In this document: positions 3,864 through 15,158 of the stretch, piece by piece
How the letters are laid out: every line of letters starts with the position of its first letter
Position numbering within the stretch: the stretch's first letter is position 1
Made by a program: the position numbers and the translations under genes
Assembly (NCBI GenBank): GCA_963781615.1
Contig: CAWAGI010000007.1
Location: forward strand, 87,652-151,651
DNA length: 64,000 nucleotides
Reading direction: 5' to 3'
Origin: an uncultured Actinomycetes bacterium
Lineage (GTDB): Bacteria; Actinomycetota; Acidimicrobiia; IMCC26256; JACDBD01
Notes under the pieces: model-generated
What the model was told of the DNA's origin: nothing
Seen by the model: the letters and a program-made list of their open reading frames with translations, nothing else
Databases searched by the model: none

Positions 3864-4270
3864 CTGCCGCGCGCGATCCCGGCCTTGCGGAGCACGTCGG
3901 GAGAGACGCCCAGCTCGCGCCACGCCGCGTACGAGATGCTCTTGCGCTCGGCGTAGCCCTTGGCCACCTTCACGAAGTCGCGCTCGAGCCCGGTGAGGTC
4001 GTCGGCGGCGTCGATCCGATCGAGCTCGCGTTCGAGGTCCATGCGCTCCTGGACGAGTTGCAGCCGGTGCAGCGGTGCCGCGTCGGCCAGCTCGGATTCG
4101 ACCGCCTTCAGGCGCTTCTCGATGGATGCCGGCGTGCGCGGGCGACCGCGCCGCGGGCGGTTCTGGTCCAGCGCCTCGAGGTAGGAGCGCACCGCGCGTC
4201 CCTCTGCGCGGCCCTGGGCCAGCGCCCGCTTGTGCTCGGCGGTCATCGTGCTCTTTCGAGCTGCGGCCAT
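3860..4270 (-). CDS. hypothetical charged coiled-coil protein
   Basis: ORF track 3860..4297. I prefer the ATG at 4270, which is preceded by GGGAGGGG. Sequence: [24 protein letters not shown] ... [26 protein letters not shown] recognise no family. Confidence 0.55.
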
Positions 4271-4285
4271 TCGGCGACCCCTCCC

Positions 4286-4317
4286 TTGCGATTTCACGCC
4301 TTTTGCGATTTCACGCC
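4286..4317. repeat. perfect 15-bp tandem direct repeat in a divergent promoter region
   Basis: TTGCGATTTCACGCC occurs at 4286-4300 and again at 4303-4317 (17-nt period), between the minus-strand gene 3860..4270 and purL. Two further ATTTCGG copies lie at 4324 and 4347. Confidence 0.8.
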
Positions 4318-4381
4318 CAGTCTATTTCGGTATTGGGTACAGCTCCATTTCGGGGACGGAGACCGCCGATACCCTGGCGGC

Positions 4382-6619
4382 ATGGAGCCCCTCCACCGCC
4401 GGCTCGGCCTCACCGACGACGAGCTGGCGGCGGTCGTCGAGCTGCTCGGACGCGAGCCGACGGAGCTGGAGCTCGCGATGTTCGCGGTGATGTGGTCGGA
4501 GCACTGCTCGTACAAGTCGTCGCGGGCGCACCTCCGGCGGCTGCCCACCGAGGCGCCGTGGGTGCTCGTCGGCCCGGGCGAGGGCGCCGGGGTCGTCGAC
4601 ATCGGCGACGGCCTTGCGGTCGCGGTCCGGATCGAGAGCCACAACCACCCGTCGGCGGTCGAGCCCTACCAGGGCGCGGCGACGGGAGTCGGCGGCATCA
4701 TTCGCGACATCTTCTCGATGGGCGCGCGCCCTCTTGCGCTCATGGACCCACTCCGCTTCGGCCCACTGGACGACGCACGGACGCGCTACCTGCTCGAAGG
4801 CGTCGTGTCCGGGATCAGCGGCTACGGCAACGCGGTCGGCGTTCCCACCGTCGGCGGCGAGGTCGTGTTCGACGACTGCTACCGCGAGAACCCGCTCGTG
4901 AACGTCCTGTGCCTCGGCCTGCTCCCGCACGACCGGCTCGTGCTCGCCCGCGCCCGCGGCGAGGGGAACCTCGCCGTGCTGCTCGGGTCCTCGACCGGGC
5001 GCGACGGCATCGGCGGCGCCAGCGTGCTCGCGTCGGCCGGGTTCGAGGAGGGCGCGGAGGAGAAGCGCCCATCCGTGCAGGTGGGCGACCCGCTGGAGGA
5101 GAAGAAGCTCATCGAAGCGTGCCTCGCGCTGCTCGACGCCGGTCTGGCCGTCGGTGTGCAGGATCTGGGCGCCGCCGGGCTCTCGTGCGCGGCTTCGGAG
5201 ACGGCCGCCAAGGCCGGCGCCGGCATGGACGTCGACGTGGCGCGCGTGCGCCGCCGCGAGCCGGGCATGAGCGCGGTCGAGGTCATGACCTCCGAGAGTC
5301 AGGAGCGGATGCTCGTGATCGTGCAGCCCGACGATCTCGACGAGGTGCTCGGCCTGTGCGACCGGTGGGAGATCGATGCGTCCGTGGTCGGCCGGGTGAC
5401 CGACAGCCGGCGGTTCCGGGTGTTCGACGGGGTGTTCGACGAGCCCGGCGGCGCAGACGGTGACGCCGAGCCGCTGGCCGACGTCCCCGTCGAGAGCCTG
5501 GGCGACGGCCCTCTCTACGACCGGCCGCGCGCCCGCCCCGAGGGACAGGATGCGCTGCAAGCGGCCGACCCGGCGCCCGAGCTCGTTGCCCGTCTCCCCG
5601 CCGGCGCCGATGTCTCGGGTGAGCTCCTGGCGCTGCTCGCAACGCCGACGATCGCGGACAAGTCGTGGGTGTGGCGCCAGTACGACCATCAACTGTTCCT
5701 CAACACCGTCGCCGGCCCCGGCGGGGACGCCGCCGTCCTGCGCCTGAAGGGGACGGACCGCGCGCTCGCGCTCACGACCGACGGCAAGGGCCGGTTCTGC
5801 CGCCTCGACCCGCGCACCGGCGGTCGGCTCGCCGTGCTCGAGGCCGCCCGCAACGTCGCCTGTGTCGGCGCCCGGCCCCTCGCCCTTGTCAACTGCTTGA
5901 ACTTCGGCAATCCCGAGCATCCCGAGGTGATGTGGCAGTTCACCGAGGTGGTCGAGGGCATGAGCGAGGCGGCCGCCGGGCTCGAGATCCCGATCGTCGG
6001 CGGCAACGTCAGCTTCTACAACGAGTCACTCGGTCACGACATCGACCCGACCCCGGTCGTCGGGCTCCTCGGCCTGGTCGACGAGCTGGACGACCGCCCG
6101 CCGCCCGCGACCCTCGTCGAGGGAACGCGCATCGTCGTGCTCGGCGAGACGGCGACCGAGCTCGGCGGGTCGGAGTGGGCCGCCGTCGTCCACGGCCTCG
6201 ACGGCGGGATGCCACCCCGCGCCGACGTGGCCGCGGCGCGGGCCGTCAACGAGGTGGTGCGCACGCTCGTGGCCGGGGGTCTCGTCGACGGCGTGCACGA
6301 CTGCGCCGACGGTGGCCTCGCGGTCGCGCTGGCCGAGATGGCGGTCGCCGGCGAGTGCGGGTTCGACGTTGCGATCGGCGGCGCGCTCGAGTGCTTCTCC
6401 GAGTCCGCGTCGCGTGTCGTGTGCGCGGTCGACCCGGCGCTCGTCGGCGAGGTGCTGTCTCGAGCCGGCTCGGCCGGTGTCCCCGCTGTCGACGTCGGCG
6501 AGGCAAGGAGTGACCGGCTCGTCGCCCACGACGCGTTCGACGTGGCGCTGTCCGACGCGTCCCGCGCCTGGCGCGACGCGATCCCGGACGCGCTCGGCGC
6601 CGACGTCGTCGCGCGCTAG
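4382..6619 (+). CDS. purL: FGAM synthase II (large subunit)
   Basis: ATG 4382 inside ORF 3725..6619. Motifs: [50 protein letters not shown]. Confidence 0.92.
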
Positions 6620-11077: not shown

Positions 11078-11101
11078 CTGTCCGGCTCTTCCTCCTCGTT
11101 G

Positions 11102-11174
11102 TGGCCGGGGACGGCGTCGATCCGTCGACCCCACGCTTTTCAGGCGTGTGCTCTGCCAACTGAGCTACCCGGCC
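11102..11174 (-). tRNA. tRNA-Phe (GAA)
   Basis: The reverse complement is GGCCGGGTAGCTCAGTTGGCAGAGCACACGCCTGAAAAGCGTGGGGTCGACGGATCGACGCCGTCCCCGGCCA. It has a 7-bp acceptor stem, anticodon arm CACGC-CTGAAAA-GCGTG, and an unusual A at T-loop position 54. No CCA is encoded. Confidence 0.85.
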
Positions 11175-11203
11175 GGGAGCGGGCCGCGCACGCAGCCCGC
11201 CGG

Positions 11204-11278
11204 CGGTCCTGACGGGATTTGAACCCGCGAGCTCCGCCTTGACAGGGCGGCGTGCTAACCAGACTGCACCACAGGACC
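11204..11278 (-). tRNA. tRNA-Asp (GTC)
   Basis: The reverse complement is GGTCCTGTGGTGCAGTCTGGTTAGCACGCCGCCCTGTCAAGGCGGAGCTCGCGGGTTCAAATCCCGTCAGGACCG. Anticodon arm CCGCC-CTGTCAA-GGCGG, T-loop TTCAAAT. Confidence 0.9.
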
Positions 11279-11316
11279 ATGTCTCCGACGCTCGACGTTC
11301 GCGCCGCCGGCGCCTG

Positions 11317-11389
11317 TGCCCCCAGGGGAATTCGAATCCCCGCTACCGCCTTGAAAGGGCGGCGTCCTAGACCGCTAGACGATGGGGGC
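11317..11389 (-). tRNA. tRNA-Glu (TTC)
   Basis: The reverse complement is GCCCCCATCGTCTAGCGGTCTAGGACGCCGCCCTTTCAAGGCGGTAGCGGGGATTCGAATTCCCCTGGGGGCA. Anticodon arm CCGCC-CTTTCAA-GGCGG. Confidence 0.9.
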
Positions 11390-11491: not shown

Positions 11492-11926
11492 ATGCGCCGA
11501 TTTCGGACCGTCGTCGCCGGGACACTCGTCTCGGCCATGACGCTCGTGACCTACCAGGTCGCCGCGGCGGGCACGACCGCCCGGCCCGCGCAATCGACGT
11601 CGGCTTTCTGCACGACTGCCCAACGGCTTCAGAGTGAGATCCAGGGCCTCGACGACATCGACCTCGAGTCCCTGAGCGTGCGGAGCATCAAGGCGATGTA
11701 CCGGCGCGACGTGAGCCTCATCAAGCAGCTCCAGAAGGAAGCTCCTCAGGAGCTGAAGGACGCGTTCAAGCGGCTGCGCCGCCTGTACCAGCGGGTCGTG
11801 GACGGAAAGCTCAAGCTCGGACAGTTGCCGAGCGCGATCTCGAGAGCAGCCGATGACCTCTCGACGATCTTCACGTATCTCGAAGACGAGTGCGGCATCA
11901 CATTCGAGACGACGACCACCACCTGA
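11492..11926 (+). CDS. hypothetical secreted protein
   Basis: 144-aa ORF with signal-like N-terminus MRRFRTVVAGTLVSAMTLVTYQVAAAG and a helical charged body. GAAAGAGAGAG lies upstream of the ATG. No family recognised. Confidence 0.55.
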   Translation: MRRFRTVVAGTLVSAMTLVTYQVAAAGTTARPAQSTSAFCTTAQRLQSEIQGLDDIDLESLSVRSIKAMYRRDVSLIKQLQKEAPQELKDAFKRLRRLYQRVVDGKLKLGQLPSAISRAADDLSTIFTYLEDECGITFETTTTT

Positions 11927-11957: not shown

Positions 11958-12030
11958 GGGCCGCTAGCTCAGTTGGCAGAGCAACGGACTTTTAATCCGA
12001 TGGTCCGGGGTTCGATTCCCCGGCGGCCCA
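11958..12030 (+). tRNA. tRNA-Lys (TTT)
   Basis: GGGCCGCTAGCTCAGTTGGCAGAGCAACGGACTTTTAATCCGATGGTCCGGGGTTCGATTCCCCGGCGGCCCA. Acceptor GGGCCGC/GCGGCCC, anticodon loop CTTTTAA, T-arm CGGGG-TTCGATT-CCCCG. Confidence 0.9.
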
Positions 12031-12073
12031 CCTGGAATCCGACGAGACACGCGAGCCTCCGCCTCGTGGCCAC

Positions 12074-12586
12074 TCACGTCGATGACGTGCTGCCTGCGCC
12101 TCCGCTCTCCAAGCTGACGATCACGTAGGTGGTGCCGTCGTTGCTGACGACGACGGTGTTGCCGGTGTAGGCGCCCGAGAACTCCACGGTTCCGACGAAG
12201 GCGCTCCCGGCGCCGGCCGAGGTCGAGTTGTTGACCGTGTACGCGCTGTTGGACTTGTAGAAGTTGAACACGTCGTCGGGCTTGCTCGTCGCGCTGTACA
12301 CGCCGACGAGGACGGTCTTGTTCGTGTTGCCCAGCGAGCCCGAGCCGGCCTTCTTCGTGTCGGGGGCGACCGGGAACCCGGAAGGCCAGCCCGGCGGCAG
12401 CTGACCGTCGAGCGACAGCGACGCCTGACCATCGGGTGTGCTCACCTGGAAGCTCTTGCCACTGCTCTTCGCCGTCGTCGTCGAAGACGACGACTTGTTC
12501 GAGTCGTCGCTCGAGCAACCCGCGACGACTGCGCCGATCAATGCTGCGATCGCCGCCACCCCTGCCAATTTCCGCGTCGTCTTCAC
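12074..12586 (-). CDS. hypothetical lipoprotein
   Basis: Signal peptide plus lipobox (AALIGAVVAGC), followed by a Ser/Thr-rich linker. No family recognised. Confidence 0.65.
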   Translation of the reverse strand: MKTTRKLAGVAAIAALIGAVVAGCSSDDSNKSSSSTTTAKSSGKSFQVSTPDGQASLSLDGQLPPGWPSGFPVAPDTKKAGSGSLGNTNKTVLVGVYSATSKPDDVFNFYKSNSAYTVNNSTSAGAGSAFVGTVEFSGAYTGNTVVVSNDGTTYVIVSLESGGAGSTSST

Positions 12587-12820
12587 GGTTCCCCCTCTCG
12601 AGCGCGCACTGCGAGGCTAACGCCGCTGACAAGTGCGGCCGTGCGCCCGTCGGTTTGTCCAGTACCGACCTCATTCGTCGGAGCTTCAATTTGCCGTGAG
12701 GACGCCGGCGCTCAGTGCTGCCGAACGGCCCTATCTGCGCGCTCGCTGCTCCCGGGAAACTATCCGCCACAAATAGGGCGGGTGCTCGAGCGCGGGTACC
12801 CGGAACACGAAAGGCACGTG

Positions 12821-13666
12821 ATGGGTACTTCCAAACTCTGGCACCTTCCGGTGGTCGGAAGGCTCGGACTGCAGCACGGCCTGCTCGTCGGCTGGTTCCT
12901 TCTGGTCGGCGTGCTCGCGGTGCTGCTCCTCCCGGGCCCGGCAGGGAGCGCGAGCGCTCCGGGATCTCTCGTGGAGGCGCAGGCCGCGACCGTCGACTTC
13001 GGCGGTCAGTCGCACTGCGGAATCGTCGTCGGCATCGGCGCCAGCTTCGGCGGCTCCGGCAGCGGTGACGCGCGGTGCGCGAGCGTCGAGGCCGGTGGCA
13101 ACGCGCAGGTCAACACTGACGGCTTCGGCGACATCGGGATGCAGTTCCAGAACTCTCCGGTGGCTGCGGCCATCTCGAACGTCCACATCTCCAACGAAGG
13201 CGACAACAACTCCAACAACTCGATCATCGGGAACTCCGACTTGATCATCAACGGGAACGCCGGCGCGTCGGCGAACGCCTTCCCGCCGGTGGAGAGTGCC
13301 GCGGCGGCAGCGCTGCCTGCTCCGGCCGCCGTTGATCCACCGGTCACGCCGGATCCGGCGCCACCGGCGTCGGCAGCGGATGTCGGCGGTCAGTCGCACT
13401 GCGGCGTGGTCGTCGGGGTCGGGGCGAGTGGCGGTGGCTCCGGCAGTGGTGACACGCGGTGCGCGAGCATCGAAGCCGGTGGTGACGCGCAGGTCAACAC
13501 CGACGGGTTCGGCGACATCGGGATGCAGTTCCAGAACTCACCCGTGAATGCGCCCATCACCAACGTTCACATCTCGAACGAGGGCAACAACAACTCGAAC
13601 AACACGATCGTCGGTGACAACAACGTGATCATCAACGCCAACTTCGGGATCACGATCAACGTCTGA
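12821..13666 (+). CDS. secreted or membrane-anchored protein with two near-identical Gly/Asn/Cys-containing repeat domains
   Basis: ATG 12821 inside ORF 12641..13666. Hydrophobic N-terminus LLVGWFLLVGVLAVLLLPGPAGSASA. Then come two copies of GGQSHCG-VVG-GAS-GGSGSGD-RCAS-EAGG-AQVNTDGFGDIGMQFQNSPV...NVHISNEG-NNSNN, joined by a Pro/Ala linker. Confidence 0.7.
   Translation: MGTSKLWHLPVVGRLGLQHGLLVGWFLLVGVLAVLLLPGPAGSASAPGSLVEAQAATVDFGGQSHCGIVVGIGASFGGSGSGDARCASVEAGGNAQVNTDGFGDIGMQFQNSPVAAAISNVHISNEGDNNSNNSIIGNSDLIINGNAGASANAFPPVESAAAAALPAPAAVDPPVTPDPAPPASAADVGGQSHCGVVVGVGASGGGSGSGDTRCASIEAGGDAQVNTDGFGDIGMQFQNSPVNAPITNVHISNEGNNNSNNTIVGDNNVIINANFGITINV
13001..13666 (+). repeat. intragenic tandem duplication, two units of about 282 nt with a 384-nt period
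   Basis: GGCGGTCAGTCGCACTGCGG starts both units (13001 and 13385). The units stay alignable at DNA level through GGCGACATCGGGATGCAGTTCCAGAACTC and the Asn-rich tail. Confidence 0.85.
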
Positions 13667-13681
13667 TACCCGTCCGGTAGA

Positions 13682-13717
13682 GGCGCCGGGGAGGGACGTC
13701 GCCCGCTCCCCGGCGCC
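13682..13717. terminator. bidirectional terminator-like hairpin between convergent genes
   Basis: GGCGCCGGGGAG (13682-13693) and CTCCCCGGCGCC (13706-13717) form a perfect 12-bp stem with a 12-nt loop. There is no clear U-tract. Confidence 0.5.
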
Positions 13718-13736: not shown

Positions 13737-15158
13737 TCAGTCGAGGCGGGCCGCCACCGGGGACGGTGGAACGGCCGCTTCGACGCGCACGCCTGCGGGT
13801 CGACGCGGGCGCACGATCGTCACGACCAGGGCGACGATGATCGACAGCTCGAAGAGGACGAGGACCACGTTCGACGCGAACAACGTCTGGTACGCGAACG
13901 AAGCCGGGAAGCCCTGGCGATACTGGTACGCCACCAGAGAGAGCGCCGACTGCGCGAGCACGAGGCGGGTGAGCCCGGAGCGCCACTCGAGCACGAGCAC
14001 CGGCAACGCCCACGCCACGTACCACGGCAGCACGTACATCGACGCGAGCAGGTACGCCACGAGGGCGCTCCCGACCACTAGGGTCGGCGTCCGATCATGC
14101 AACCTGCTCGCGACGAGGACGCCGGCGAGGACGAGCACGGCGATGATCGACAGCGTCGCCACCGGCCGTAGGAACTCGGGAGAGAGCGGGACACGGTCGA
14201 GCCCGAACAGGCGCGCCCGCCCGTGCGAGCCGCTCAGCAACCAGATCGAGTTGCGGCTCATCTGGAGGCGCGCCGCTTCGAGGGGTTTGAGCGCGTCGAA
14301 ACCGCCGCTGACCGCGTAGCCGGCGGCGACGACGCCTCCCGCCAACCCGGCCGAGGCGATCGCCGGCCGCGGGCCGCGCCGGCGCCAGATCCAGACGACG
14401 AGCGCGACGAGACCGAGCAGTGCGACGAGCTTCACGAGCGCGCCGAGCGCGATGCACAGCGCGGCGAGCTTGAACCGTTCCTGTGTCGCGAGGAGGACGC
14501 CCGCCAGAAGCGCCAGACCGACGAGCGCGTCGTTGTGCCCGCCGTTCACGATGTCGTAGACGACGAGCGGGTTCAGGCCGATGAGCGCGACTGCAGCAGG
14601 CGCGCGCGTCCTCCTGGCGACGAGCAGCGCCGCCAGGAACACGGACAGGGCCGCCAGCCCCTGGAAGATGAGCCGGGTCGAATGGATGTCCGTGTTCGCG
14701 AACGCCACGACCCCGGCCGAGATGCCGTTCCACAGGGGGCCGTACACCGAGGGCGTGTTCTGCCACATGGGCTTGACGCGCCGGACCGCCCTGTCGTTCG
14801 GGTATTCGACCGGCACGTGCCGGTACGGGCTGGCGCCGTAGTGCGAGACCATGCGTCCGTACGCGGCGTAGGCCCAGATGTCGCTCGAGTTCCGAGGCCA
14901 GTACGTGACCGCCACGACGAGGAGCGCGAGGGCCACGACGAACACGGTGCGCATCCCGAGCGCCCGGCGCCACCGCTCGACGCCGAGGGCGAGTCCGAGG
15001 GCCGCGAACGCCAGCGCCAGCAGGCCGGCTCGGCCCAGCGACGAGAACTCGCGCGCGATCGTGATCGCAGTGGCAGAGGCCGAGACGAGCACGAGCGTGA
15101 GGACCGTGACGCGGTCGGCGACGGTGGGCGCGTCCGCGCCCGCGGGGTCGGGCGGCAC
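13737..15158 (-). CDS. integral membrane GT-C type glycosyltransferase (DUF2029/GT87-like mannosyltransferase family)
   Basis: 473-aa polytopic protein. Periplasmic-loop motifs YGPLW and NPLVVYDIVNGGHNDALV resemble the PimE/MptA-like polyprenol-phosphate-sugar transferases of actinobacteria. Confidence 0.6.
   Translation of the reverse strand: MPPDPAGADAPTVADRVTVLTLVLVSASATAITIAREFSSLGRAGLLALAFAALGLALGVERWRRALGMRTVFVVALALLVVAVTYWPRNSSDIWAYAAYGRMVSHYGASPYRHVPVEYPNDRAVRRVKPMWQNTPSVYGPLWNGISAGVVAFANTDIHSTRLIFQGLAALSVFLAALLVARRTRAPAAVALIGLNPLVVYDIVNGGHNDALVGLALLAGVLLATQERFKLAALCIALGALVKLVALLGLVALVVWIWRRRGPRPAIASAGLAGGVVAAGYAVSGGFDALKPLEAARLQMSRNSIWLLSGSHGRARLFGLDRVPLSPEFLRPVATLSIIAVLVLAGVLVASRLHDRTPTLVVGSALVAYLLASMYVLPWYVAWALPVLVLEWRSGLTRLVLAQSALSLVAYQYRQGFPASFAYQTLFASNVVLVLFELSIIVALVVTIVRPRRPAGVRVEAAVPPSPVAARLD

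Follow-up and report, generated by a model that had tools for sequence, protein, structure and literature searches.

Two GFGD[IV]G[ML]Q modules in a probably membrane-anchored Acidimicrobiia protein, and the apparently undescribed domain family to which they belong

The chaplins of Streptomyces are surface-active functional amyloids. They are actinobacterial and extracytoplasmic, have small, beta-prone, two-Cys domains, and occur in one- and two-domain cell-anchored versions. The curli protein CsgA is composed of Gln/Asn/Gly-rich strand-turn-strand units in five repeats of 19-23 residues, with a G-F-G-[ND] turn flanked by Gln. Features of both recur in a two-module protein of an uncultured Acidimicrobiia bacterium, encoded at positions 12821-13666 of a 64,000-nucleotide (nt) stretch of DNA, the window (assembly GCA_963781615.1, contig CAWAGI010000007.1, 87,652-151,651 of the forward strand; 71% G+C (GC)). 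The traits named for the chaplins are common to this protein, but the likeness is one of architecture only: chaplin domains are strongly hydrophobic, whereas the window modules are Gly/Asn/Ser-rich and acidic, and long chaplins have a C-terminal sortase anchor, while the anchor of the window protein is predicted at the N-terminus. With CsgA it has the type of unit and the Gln-flanked turn in common, and differs in having two long modules and a host that is presumably monoderm. Judged by sequence comparison, its core motif defines a small, rare, and previously undescribed domain family common to Acidimicrobiia and Planctomycetota. The parts of the gene are as follows, in window positions.

12821..13666, plus strand: complete open reading frame of 281 residues and a stop codon (ATG at 12821; TGA at 13664-13666)
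12854..12934, plus strand: N-terminal hydrophobic helix, residues 12-38, a probable signal-anchor, after a K-[LR]-W-x-x-P motif
13001..13282, plus strand: module 1, residues 61-154, made up of a Gly-rich loop (Cys66...Cys86), a core (Q96-S124, nt 13106-13192), and a tail that is amphipathic and rich in Asn (hidden Markov model (HMM) domain score 91.8)
13283..13384, plus strand: Pro/Ala-rich inter-module linker, residues 155-188 (35% Ala, 29% Pro)
13385..13663, plus strand: module 2, residues 189-281, made up of a loop (Cys194...Cys214), a core (Q224-S252, nt 13490-13576), and a tail with which the protein ends (...NFGITINV) (HMM domain score 99.5)

The helix is preceded by a short N-terminus (residues 1-11) with the motif K5-L-W7-x-x-P10, and is separated from module 1 by a spacer of residues 39-60. 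At the DNA level the modules appear as a direct repeat of 291 nt (12973-13263 against 13357-13647) with 81% identity and 384-nt spacing, and the longest exact runs common to both are 22, 16, and 32 nt. At the protein level 72 of the 95 aligned residues are identical (76%). The internal repeat is far beyond chance, and no further copy of the core motif is present elsewhere in the window. An earlier note on this DNA had described near-identical modules of 94 residues. The first term overstates the identities given here, and the length applies to module 1 (13001-13282), module 2 being 93 residues plus the stop codon. The remainder of its layout is borne out by the translation, the composition, and the 291-nt repeat: two modules follow a hydrophobic N-terminus and are separated by a Pro/Ala linker, each has exactly two Cys, and each has an Asn-rich, beta-prone tail.

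All four Cys (C66, C86, C194, and C214) are invariant in 40 orthologues. Module 2 is the most conserved region, with a majority fraction of 0.90 in its core (0.86-0.90 for the two cores), and the transmembrane (TM) segment reaches 0.86. The linker 155-188 is the least conserved region at 0.54, and its length varies between orthologues. The ectodomain has an isoelectric point of 4.05, comprises 20 Asp/Glu against 2 basic residues in 235, and contains neither Trp nor Tyr; Gly accounts for 16%, Ala for 14%, and Asn for 12%. In both module tails (...NTIVGDNNVIINANFGITINV), hydrophobic residues (I/V/A/F) alternate with polar Asn/Thr/Asp as read from the sequence, a pattern that suggests short amphipathic strands linked by Gly/Asn turns.

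The homologue search returned 85 clusters, including about 57 near-full-length two-module orthologues, all from metagenomes or metagenome-assembled genomes (MAGs). The close orthologues are in MAGs labelled Acidimicrobiia or Actinomycetota, and the remaining clusters are distant single-module proteins of 170-270 residues. A further homologue search with the core profile gave short fragments only. In an exhaustive HMM search, in which a 62-column core profile was compared with 1.84 billion cluster representatives at a cut-off of E <= 0.001, only 94 proteins matched, and multi-repeat proteins were among them at E-values down to 1e-48. These are 500-1000 residues long and contain 4-9 copies of the motif with Pro-rich linkers between them. 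When one genome of each GTDB species was scanned, the anchored forms with one or two modules were assigned to Acidimicrobiia/Actinomycetota MAGs, and the multi-unit form was assigned to Planctomycetota (Isosphaeraceae with the cultured Tundrisphaera sp. TA3 among them, Pirellulales, and a Planctomicrobium MAG). The profiles of the two groups align in hhalign over 32 columns with 98.5% probability and E = 3e-15; the Planctomycete units for this comparison were picked with the Acidimicrobiia profile, while the library-wide E-values (to 1e-48) are independent of that choice.

The core, present twice in the window protein, reads Q-x-N-x-x-G-F-G-D-[IV]-G-[ML]-Q-[FW], with V-H-x-S about 12 residues on. 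In an alignment of 81 sequences the Q, the GFG, the following G, and the second Q are invariant, and the D and the H are at least 90% conserved. All subgroups have an N-terminal TM helix or signal and Pro/Ala- or Pro/Thr-rich linkers, so the units are probably extracytoplasmic throughout the family and flanked by Pro-rich linkers.

The single-module Acidimicrobiia proteins (groups MYIEKRWLVP... and MST.QRWQTP...; P0060-P0085) come from the same bacterial class as the window protein and resemble it in the [KR]-W-x-x-P motif and TM helix, and in the core with its continuation N-V-H-I-S-N-x-G-N-N-N-x-x-N. Their core is Q-I-N-T-R-GFGDIGMQFQ-x-V-x-I-N-A-P-I-T-N-V-H-I-S-N-Q-G-N-N-N. They differ in having one module, no Cys loop, a long disordered C-terminal tail rich in Pro, Thr, Ala, and Asp, and unrelated genomic contexts.

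The Planctomycetota multi-repeat proteins (P0086-P0114; for example Tundrisphaera sp. TA3, NZ_CP195100.1, locus L023 at 3979-6417, 812 residues) are also uncharacterised. They have in common with the window protein the 32-residue string Q-[FV]-N-x-x-GFGD[IV]G[ML]Q[WF]-x-x-V-x-V-x-x-x-V-x-x-VH-x-S, Pro-rich linkers, a last unit that ends the protein, and the lack of any Pfam or NCBIfam match. In contrast, they contain 4-9 units and a cleavable-looking N-terminal signal in place of the K-W-x-x-P motif and TM anchor. The two-Cys loop and the Asn-rich tail are absent, and the motif is followed by ...HNSLSVQPEG..G.I.V.NV.F. Their repeat unit is ...T-N-S-G-x-I-x-x-S-Q-F-N-D-G-GFGD[IV]G[LM]QW-x-x-V-x-V-x-G-x-V-x-x-VHNSLSV.... 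One multi-repeat protein also has a Big_5 Ig-like domain, as in surface adhesins. Contigs L025-L028, which are labelled Pirellulales, Planctomycetia, 'Candidatus Kuenenia stuttgartiensis', and Planctomicrobium piriforme, each carry a multi-repeat gene with motif copies at matching relative positions and near-equal scores. This suggests one closely related family of genes; if so, at least the Kuenenia label comes from a mis-binned contig.

A similar string was seen in weakly matching repeat proteins of the beta-propeller type (P0142, P0149, P0153, and P0168), in which every blade has W-x-QVNTDGFGD-x-x-N; P0153 also has a type IX secretion sorting domain. Nine residues are identical to the start of the core motif, but the match is only 11 residues long, and the repeat is otherwise unrelated. 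Convergence on a strand-turn motif is the probable explanation, and these proteins are not counted as homologues.

The earlier note had ascribed the likeness of the modules to a recent duplication or to concerted evolution. On that reading, in which the modules come from a recent duplication or ongoing gene conversion, their similarity would be young and would say little on function. The exact DNA runs of 22, 16, and 32 nt speak for it. Counted by the Nei-Gojobori method over 95 aligned codons, however, the modules differ at a proportion pS of 0.36 of synonymous sites (dS about 0.48) and pN of 0.14 of non-synonymous sites, with a dN/dS of 0.32. The pS varies little from part to part of the modules (loop 0.38, core 0.36, tail 0.31), and it equals or exceeds that between the window gene and its orthologues from other MAGs (0.12-0.35), that is, the divergence between orthologues of different species. 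Of the 72 identical residues, 20 are encoded by different codons in the two modules, despite a GC content of 0.85 at third codon positions (GC3). The 88 modules of 44 two-module proteins (53-100% identity to the window protein) were placed in a neighbour-joining tree, in which module 1 and module 2 fall into separate clades in most of the family, and the diagnostic tail residues are shared by orthologues down to 53% identity. The duplication therefore predates the whole group. It is ancient and selectively maintained, and for this lineage a recent origin is refuted by the dS, the uniform pS, and the module-specific clades; we regard it as very improbable.

Concerted evolution, the other half of that claim, stands in part. 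In one subclade (P0036 and P0040-P0047) the Cys-loop is altered in parallel in both modules, from GAS-x-GGSGSGD to G-x-GEQSG, and in P0041 and P0046 the protein's own two modules cluster together in the tree, which are also points for the young-duplication reading. The tails retain residues specific to module 1 or module 2 even where the loops co-vary. The pattern is that of partial, episodic concerted evolution, or of co-selection of both Cys-loops, atop an old duplication, as far as the alignments and the tree indicate.

The profile-HMM and structure-prediction searches (AlphaFold plus Foldseek) proposed in the earlier note gave no confident match to a characterised domain family, in line with its remark that no family was recognisable. 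In Pfam-A and NCBIfam, no family match was found for the window protein, 40 orthologues, and 8 distant relatives, apart from sub-threshold Pol_BBD noise at E-values of 0.003-0.05. A PDB sequence search with phmmer gave a best E-value of 0.23, from the low-complexity linker, and a PDB profile search a best E-value of 0.9. AlphaFold2 (AF2), run on the full protein with a 40-sequence alignment, gave a mean predicted local distance difference test score (pLDDT) of 40 and was confident only for the N-terminal helix; both modules were drawn as all-beta, below pLDDT 50. With 81 diverse units, module 2 reached pLDDT 57, and with this weak query model Foldseek returned 0 matches against the PDB. Nothing was found in the literature on functional amyloid in Acidimicrobiia or on the motif string. 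By these comparisons the protein belongs to no described family.

Some specific candidates were set aside. A Thr-Gln ester or Lys-Asn isopeptide domain is ruled out, as Lys is lacking and the Planctomycete units do not conserve the Thr. As the common function, a His/Cys metal site is ruled out by the absence of the Cys pair from the single-module proteins and the Planctomycete proteins, and thus from most family members. A signal of the type IV pilin kind is rejected, as there is no G|F...E motif. Homology to curli through the common G-F-G-[ND] turn is rejected: the core profile reaches 0.5% probability in hhalign against an approximate CsgA sequence, and there is no Curlin_rpt match.

The N-terminal segment is the only hydrophobic one in the protein, with a Kyte-Doolittle maximum of 2.53 (19-residue window) at residue 21. 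AF2 places a helix at residues 12-35 in a block of pLDDT 70-93, and W25, G16, Q18, and G20 are invariant across the 40 orthologues. The [KR]-W-x-x-P motif and the TM segment are also kept in the distant single-module relatives. The sole A-x-A site of the window protein is A44-S45-A46, followed by Pro47. A retained membrane anchor is likelier than a cleaved signal peptide because the helix is as conserved as the module cores and because Pro follows A-S-A. The protein is thus extracytoplasmic and probably a membrane-tethered signal-anchor protein, N-terminus in and C-terminus out, as predicted from its sequence. Its Pro/Ala linkers, which are Thr/Pro in relatives, fit a wall-spanning ectodomain. 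The earlier note had called the protein secreted. Its extracytoplasmic location agrees with the hydrophobic N-terminus and acidic ectodomain, while release by cleavage is the less likely part, given the helix conservation and the Pro after A-S-A.

A protein with a cleaved Sec signal peptide, released to form an amyloid or an assembly of the surface-layer (S-layer) type as an analogue of chaplins or curli, has to be weighed against this topology. The hydrophobic N-terminus is followed by the small residues A-G-S-A-S-A, and some orthologues have G-A-A|S, a site that signal peptidase could cut. The composition is rich in Gly and Asn and beta-prone, the monomer is not modelled successfully by AF2, and the module is reminiscent of the chaplin domain, with two conserved Cys in a short beta-prone domain; these are located in a Gly-rich loop N-terminal to the core. 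The tail ...NANFGITINV may resemble known steric-zipper segments such as NFGAIL of IAPP. On the other side, an N-terminal segment as conserved as the core, with [KR]-W-x-x-P kept in distant relatives, is unusual for a discarded signal peptide, and Pro stands after A-S-A in the window protein. Neither Chaplin (PF03777) nor Curlin_rpt (PF07012) matches the window protein or the 40 orthologues at E <= 1 in an hmmscan of Pfam-A, and the hhalign value for CsgA is the 0.5% given above. No nucleator, secretion, or sortase genes are nearby, and none of the csgB/csgEFG type is among the neighbours (lipoprotein, tRNA-Lys, GT87-like, and bioD/F/A-like). A C-terminal sortase LAxTG anchor or other sorting signal is absent, the protein ending in ...NFGITINV directly after module 2. 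A secreted amyloid or S-layer form is less likely than the anchored one, and on the whole we judge it distinctly improbable.

The reading that we prefer, tentatively and with a confidence that stops short of even, is that of a membrane-anchored envelope protein of Acidimicrobiia whose two beta modules have a self-pairing role in a lattice, fibre, or adhesive layer. The protein would be held in the membrane by its very short N-terminus (K-L-W-x-x-P), located in the cytoplasm, and by a single conserved TM helix, and the remainder would be outside the cell as two all-beta modules of about 94 residues on a flexible Pro/Ala stalk. Each module would comprise three parts: a Gly-rich loop closed by the two invariant Cys, presumably as a disulfide; the near-invariant beta-arc Q-V-N-T-x-GFGDIGMQFQ-x-S-P-V-x-A-x-I-x-N-V-H-x-S; and the Asn-rich tail of short alternating strands. 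An old tandem duplication would have given the pair, with both modules under purifying selection and the Cys-loops occasionally homogenised. The modules would act as surface-displayed units, and their amphipathic beta tails and Gln/Asn-rich arc would bring about the pairing, within one protein or from one molecule or cell to the next, in a surface lattice, fibre, or adhesive layer. The adhesin-like, beads-on-string relatives, the natural one-, two-, and many-unit versions, and the loop co-variation are compatible with self-association. The failure of the monomer model despite strong conservation could likewise fit a fold that forms only on association. The self-associating or adhesive role as such is weakly supported.

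Several points weigh against this reading. The beta-module picture and the pairing surface have no confident structure behind them, the predicted models having low pLDDT, and AF2 predicts no confident contact between the tethered modules and so lends no support to pairing within the molecule. Cleavage of the N-terminus is possible, some orthologues having G-A-A|S. No conserved operon and no assembly, secretion, or regulatory partner is present next to the gene in the seven lineages inspected. Finally, a 10-residue motif that is near-invariant in two phyla would be explained no less well by a specific site for a ligand or ion than by self-pairing.

The last point introduces the main rival, in which the module is a ligand-binding display domain that recognises, for example, a glycan of the cell wall or the environment, or a metal ion (Ca2+ or another), through the Asp, Gln, and His of the GFGD arc. 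The protein would then be a receptor, lectin, or ion-binding protein and would not self-assemble. The extremely strong conservation of G-F-G-D-x-G-x-Q and the downstream His from Acidimicrobiia to Planctomycetota is typical of a specific site, and this near-invariance favours a ligand at least as much as it favours pairing. The strongly acidic ectodomain (20 Asp/Glu against 2 Lys/Arg), the adhesin-like Planctomycete relatives with their beads-on-string units, one of them with Big_5, and the gene for a GT87-type glycosyltransferase that adjoins in close orthologues point the same way. However, no carbohydrate-binding, RTX/HemolysinCabind (PF00353), or other ion-binding family matches, the Pfam search for PF00353 being negative at E <= 1, and on inspection the G-F-G-D register differs from the G-G-x-G-x-D of RTX repeats. 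Neither the single-module nor the Planctomycete proteins have the Cys pair, which excludes a His/Cys metal site common to the family. The GT87 gene is convergent, and the adjacency does not extend to more distant orthologues. Ligand or ion binding is rather unlikely on this balance, and is the alternative to be taken most seriously.

A bolder form of the preferred self-pairing reading extends it to the whole family. The GFGD[IV]G[ML]Q unit would then be a new extracellular self-assembling beta domain that folds only on homotypic stacking, which would account for the failed monomer prediction. It would form a tethered lattice or fibre in uncultured soil Acidimicrobiia and a multi-unit fibre protein in Planctomycetota, and would be a functional counterpart of chaplins and curli with no sequence relation to them. 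This is put forward as a conjecture that we think will probably not hold.

That the reading frame is functional is far more secure. In favour of a chance frame in GC-rich DNA, or of a decaying pseudogene, is the negative result of a simple scan for a sigma-70-type promoter. Against this, the codon-position GC values of 12821-13666 are 0.63/0.51/0.85, with the in-frame GC3 of 0.85 standing against 71% GC in the window as in a genuine gene. Dozens of metagenomes contain full-length orthologues, and pN/pS is far lower than 1: compared with those from other MAGs, the window gene shows a pN of 0.01-0.07 at a pS of 0.12-0.35. A ribosome-binding site (RBS), GAAAGG at 12809-12814, is located ahead of the ATG, the RBS and upstream region are conserved, and a hairpin is present downstream of the stop codon. 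The frame is a real conserved gene under purifying selection, and a non-functional one is hardly credible. A longer form from a GTG at 12641 finds no support in orthologue starts or upstream DNA, and is disfavoured because the orthologues all begin at the equivalent Met and the conserved upstream DNA has indels that are not multiples of three. The flanking elements are these.

12704..12820, plus strand: conserved upstream region (promoter, operator, or 5' leader) with an inverted repeat CCGCC-N9-GGCGG and the RBS; its DNA is conserved across orthologous loci
13682..13717, no strand assigned: GC-rich hairpin between the convergent stop codons of the two-module gene and the GT87-like gene, terminator-like, without a U-tract

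About 120-140 nt 5' of the ATG are conserved in DNA between orthologous loci (the window, L003, L005-L012, L040, L051, L064, L094, and L134) despite differing upstream genes. The region begins with GATCGGCCCTAT, which is followed by a short lineage-specific segment that is self-complementary in each lineage. Next come TCCTTGAAACTA, an inverted repeat CCCGCC-N10-12-GGGCGGG with a variable loop, CGCGGGTGCCCC, and the RBS. It has no Rfam match, and RNAalifold detected neither covariation nor compensatory changes in it. A pattern scan of metagenomes gave 5 true orthologues among the at least 120 loci listed, all too alike for covariation. The region could be a promoter plus an operator, or a 5' leader RNA of no Rfam family. 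The 81-nt stretch around the hairpin has a folding energy of -43.2 kcal/mol (z = -3.36 against shuffles).

The neighbouring features in the window are the following.

11101-11389: tRNA-Phe/Asp/Glu cluster
11492-11926, plus strand: 144-residue exported protein with a signal-peptide-like N-terminus and no family match
11958-12032: tRNA-Lys
12074-12586, minus strand: 170-residue lipoprotein with lipobox VAG|C, a Ser/Thr-rich linker, and no family match
13737-15158, minus strand: membrane protein resembling polyprenol-dependent mannosyltransferases of the GT87/MptA_B family (Pfam/NCBIfam matches), convergent with the two-module gene

In the close orthologues L003 and L005-L007, the downstream GT87-like gene is followed by genes with Pfam matches to AAA_26, Aminotran_1_2, and Aminotran_3, which may be read as bioD/bioF/bioA-like. 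The window has frames of matching size and strand at the same place. The upstream side differs from locus to locus among the close orthologues, and the neighbours are unrelated around an orthologue of 53% identity, around the genes of the single-module proteins, and in Tundrisphaera. An operon is rejected, as the downstream conservation is limited to close orthologues and reflects synteny. Since the neighbours are unrelated beyond these, the gene is a stand-alone one whose context gives no functional clue. A mobile-element origin found no tblastn match in plasmid or phage collections. GT87 enzymes are best known from lipomannan and lipoarabinomannan synthesis in Corynebacteriales; that the GT87-like enzyme glycosylates the Pro/Ala or Thr/Pro linkers is pure speculation.

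The stretch of tRNA and small exported-protein genes has a GC content of 0.62-0.69, against 0.71-0.75 in its flanks. Because the upstream flank of the two-module gene, in which this stretch is located, is non-syntenic in orthologous contigs, it may be a variable, tRNA-associated insertion spot. Of the tRNA-flanked block of secreted or lipoprotein genes that had been described here, the 144-residue gene at 11492-11926 is the only one between tRNA genes, and the two-module gene is downstream of tRNA-Lys and of the divergent lipoprotein gene.

Surface proteins that are anchored by the N-terminus and carry tandem beta modules on Pro-rich stalks are already familiar, and such proteins shape adhesion, aggregation, and hydrophobicity; the new part is the domain itself, which matches nothing described. 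The practical gain is modest: a defined motif and an alignment to seed a new Pfam or NCBIfam model, together with the correction that the duplication is ancient and selectively maintained, not recent. The GFGD[IV]G[ML]Q domain is a candidate for structural work, and a specialist would be mildly, not strongly, surprised by it. Soil Acidimicrobiia are abundant but uncultured, and to our knowledge almost nothing is known of their surface proteins. If the reading is true, two poorly studied phyla would have in common a small, previously undescribed envelope-protein domain family, with a remarkably invariant core motif and natural one-, two-, and many-module versions.

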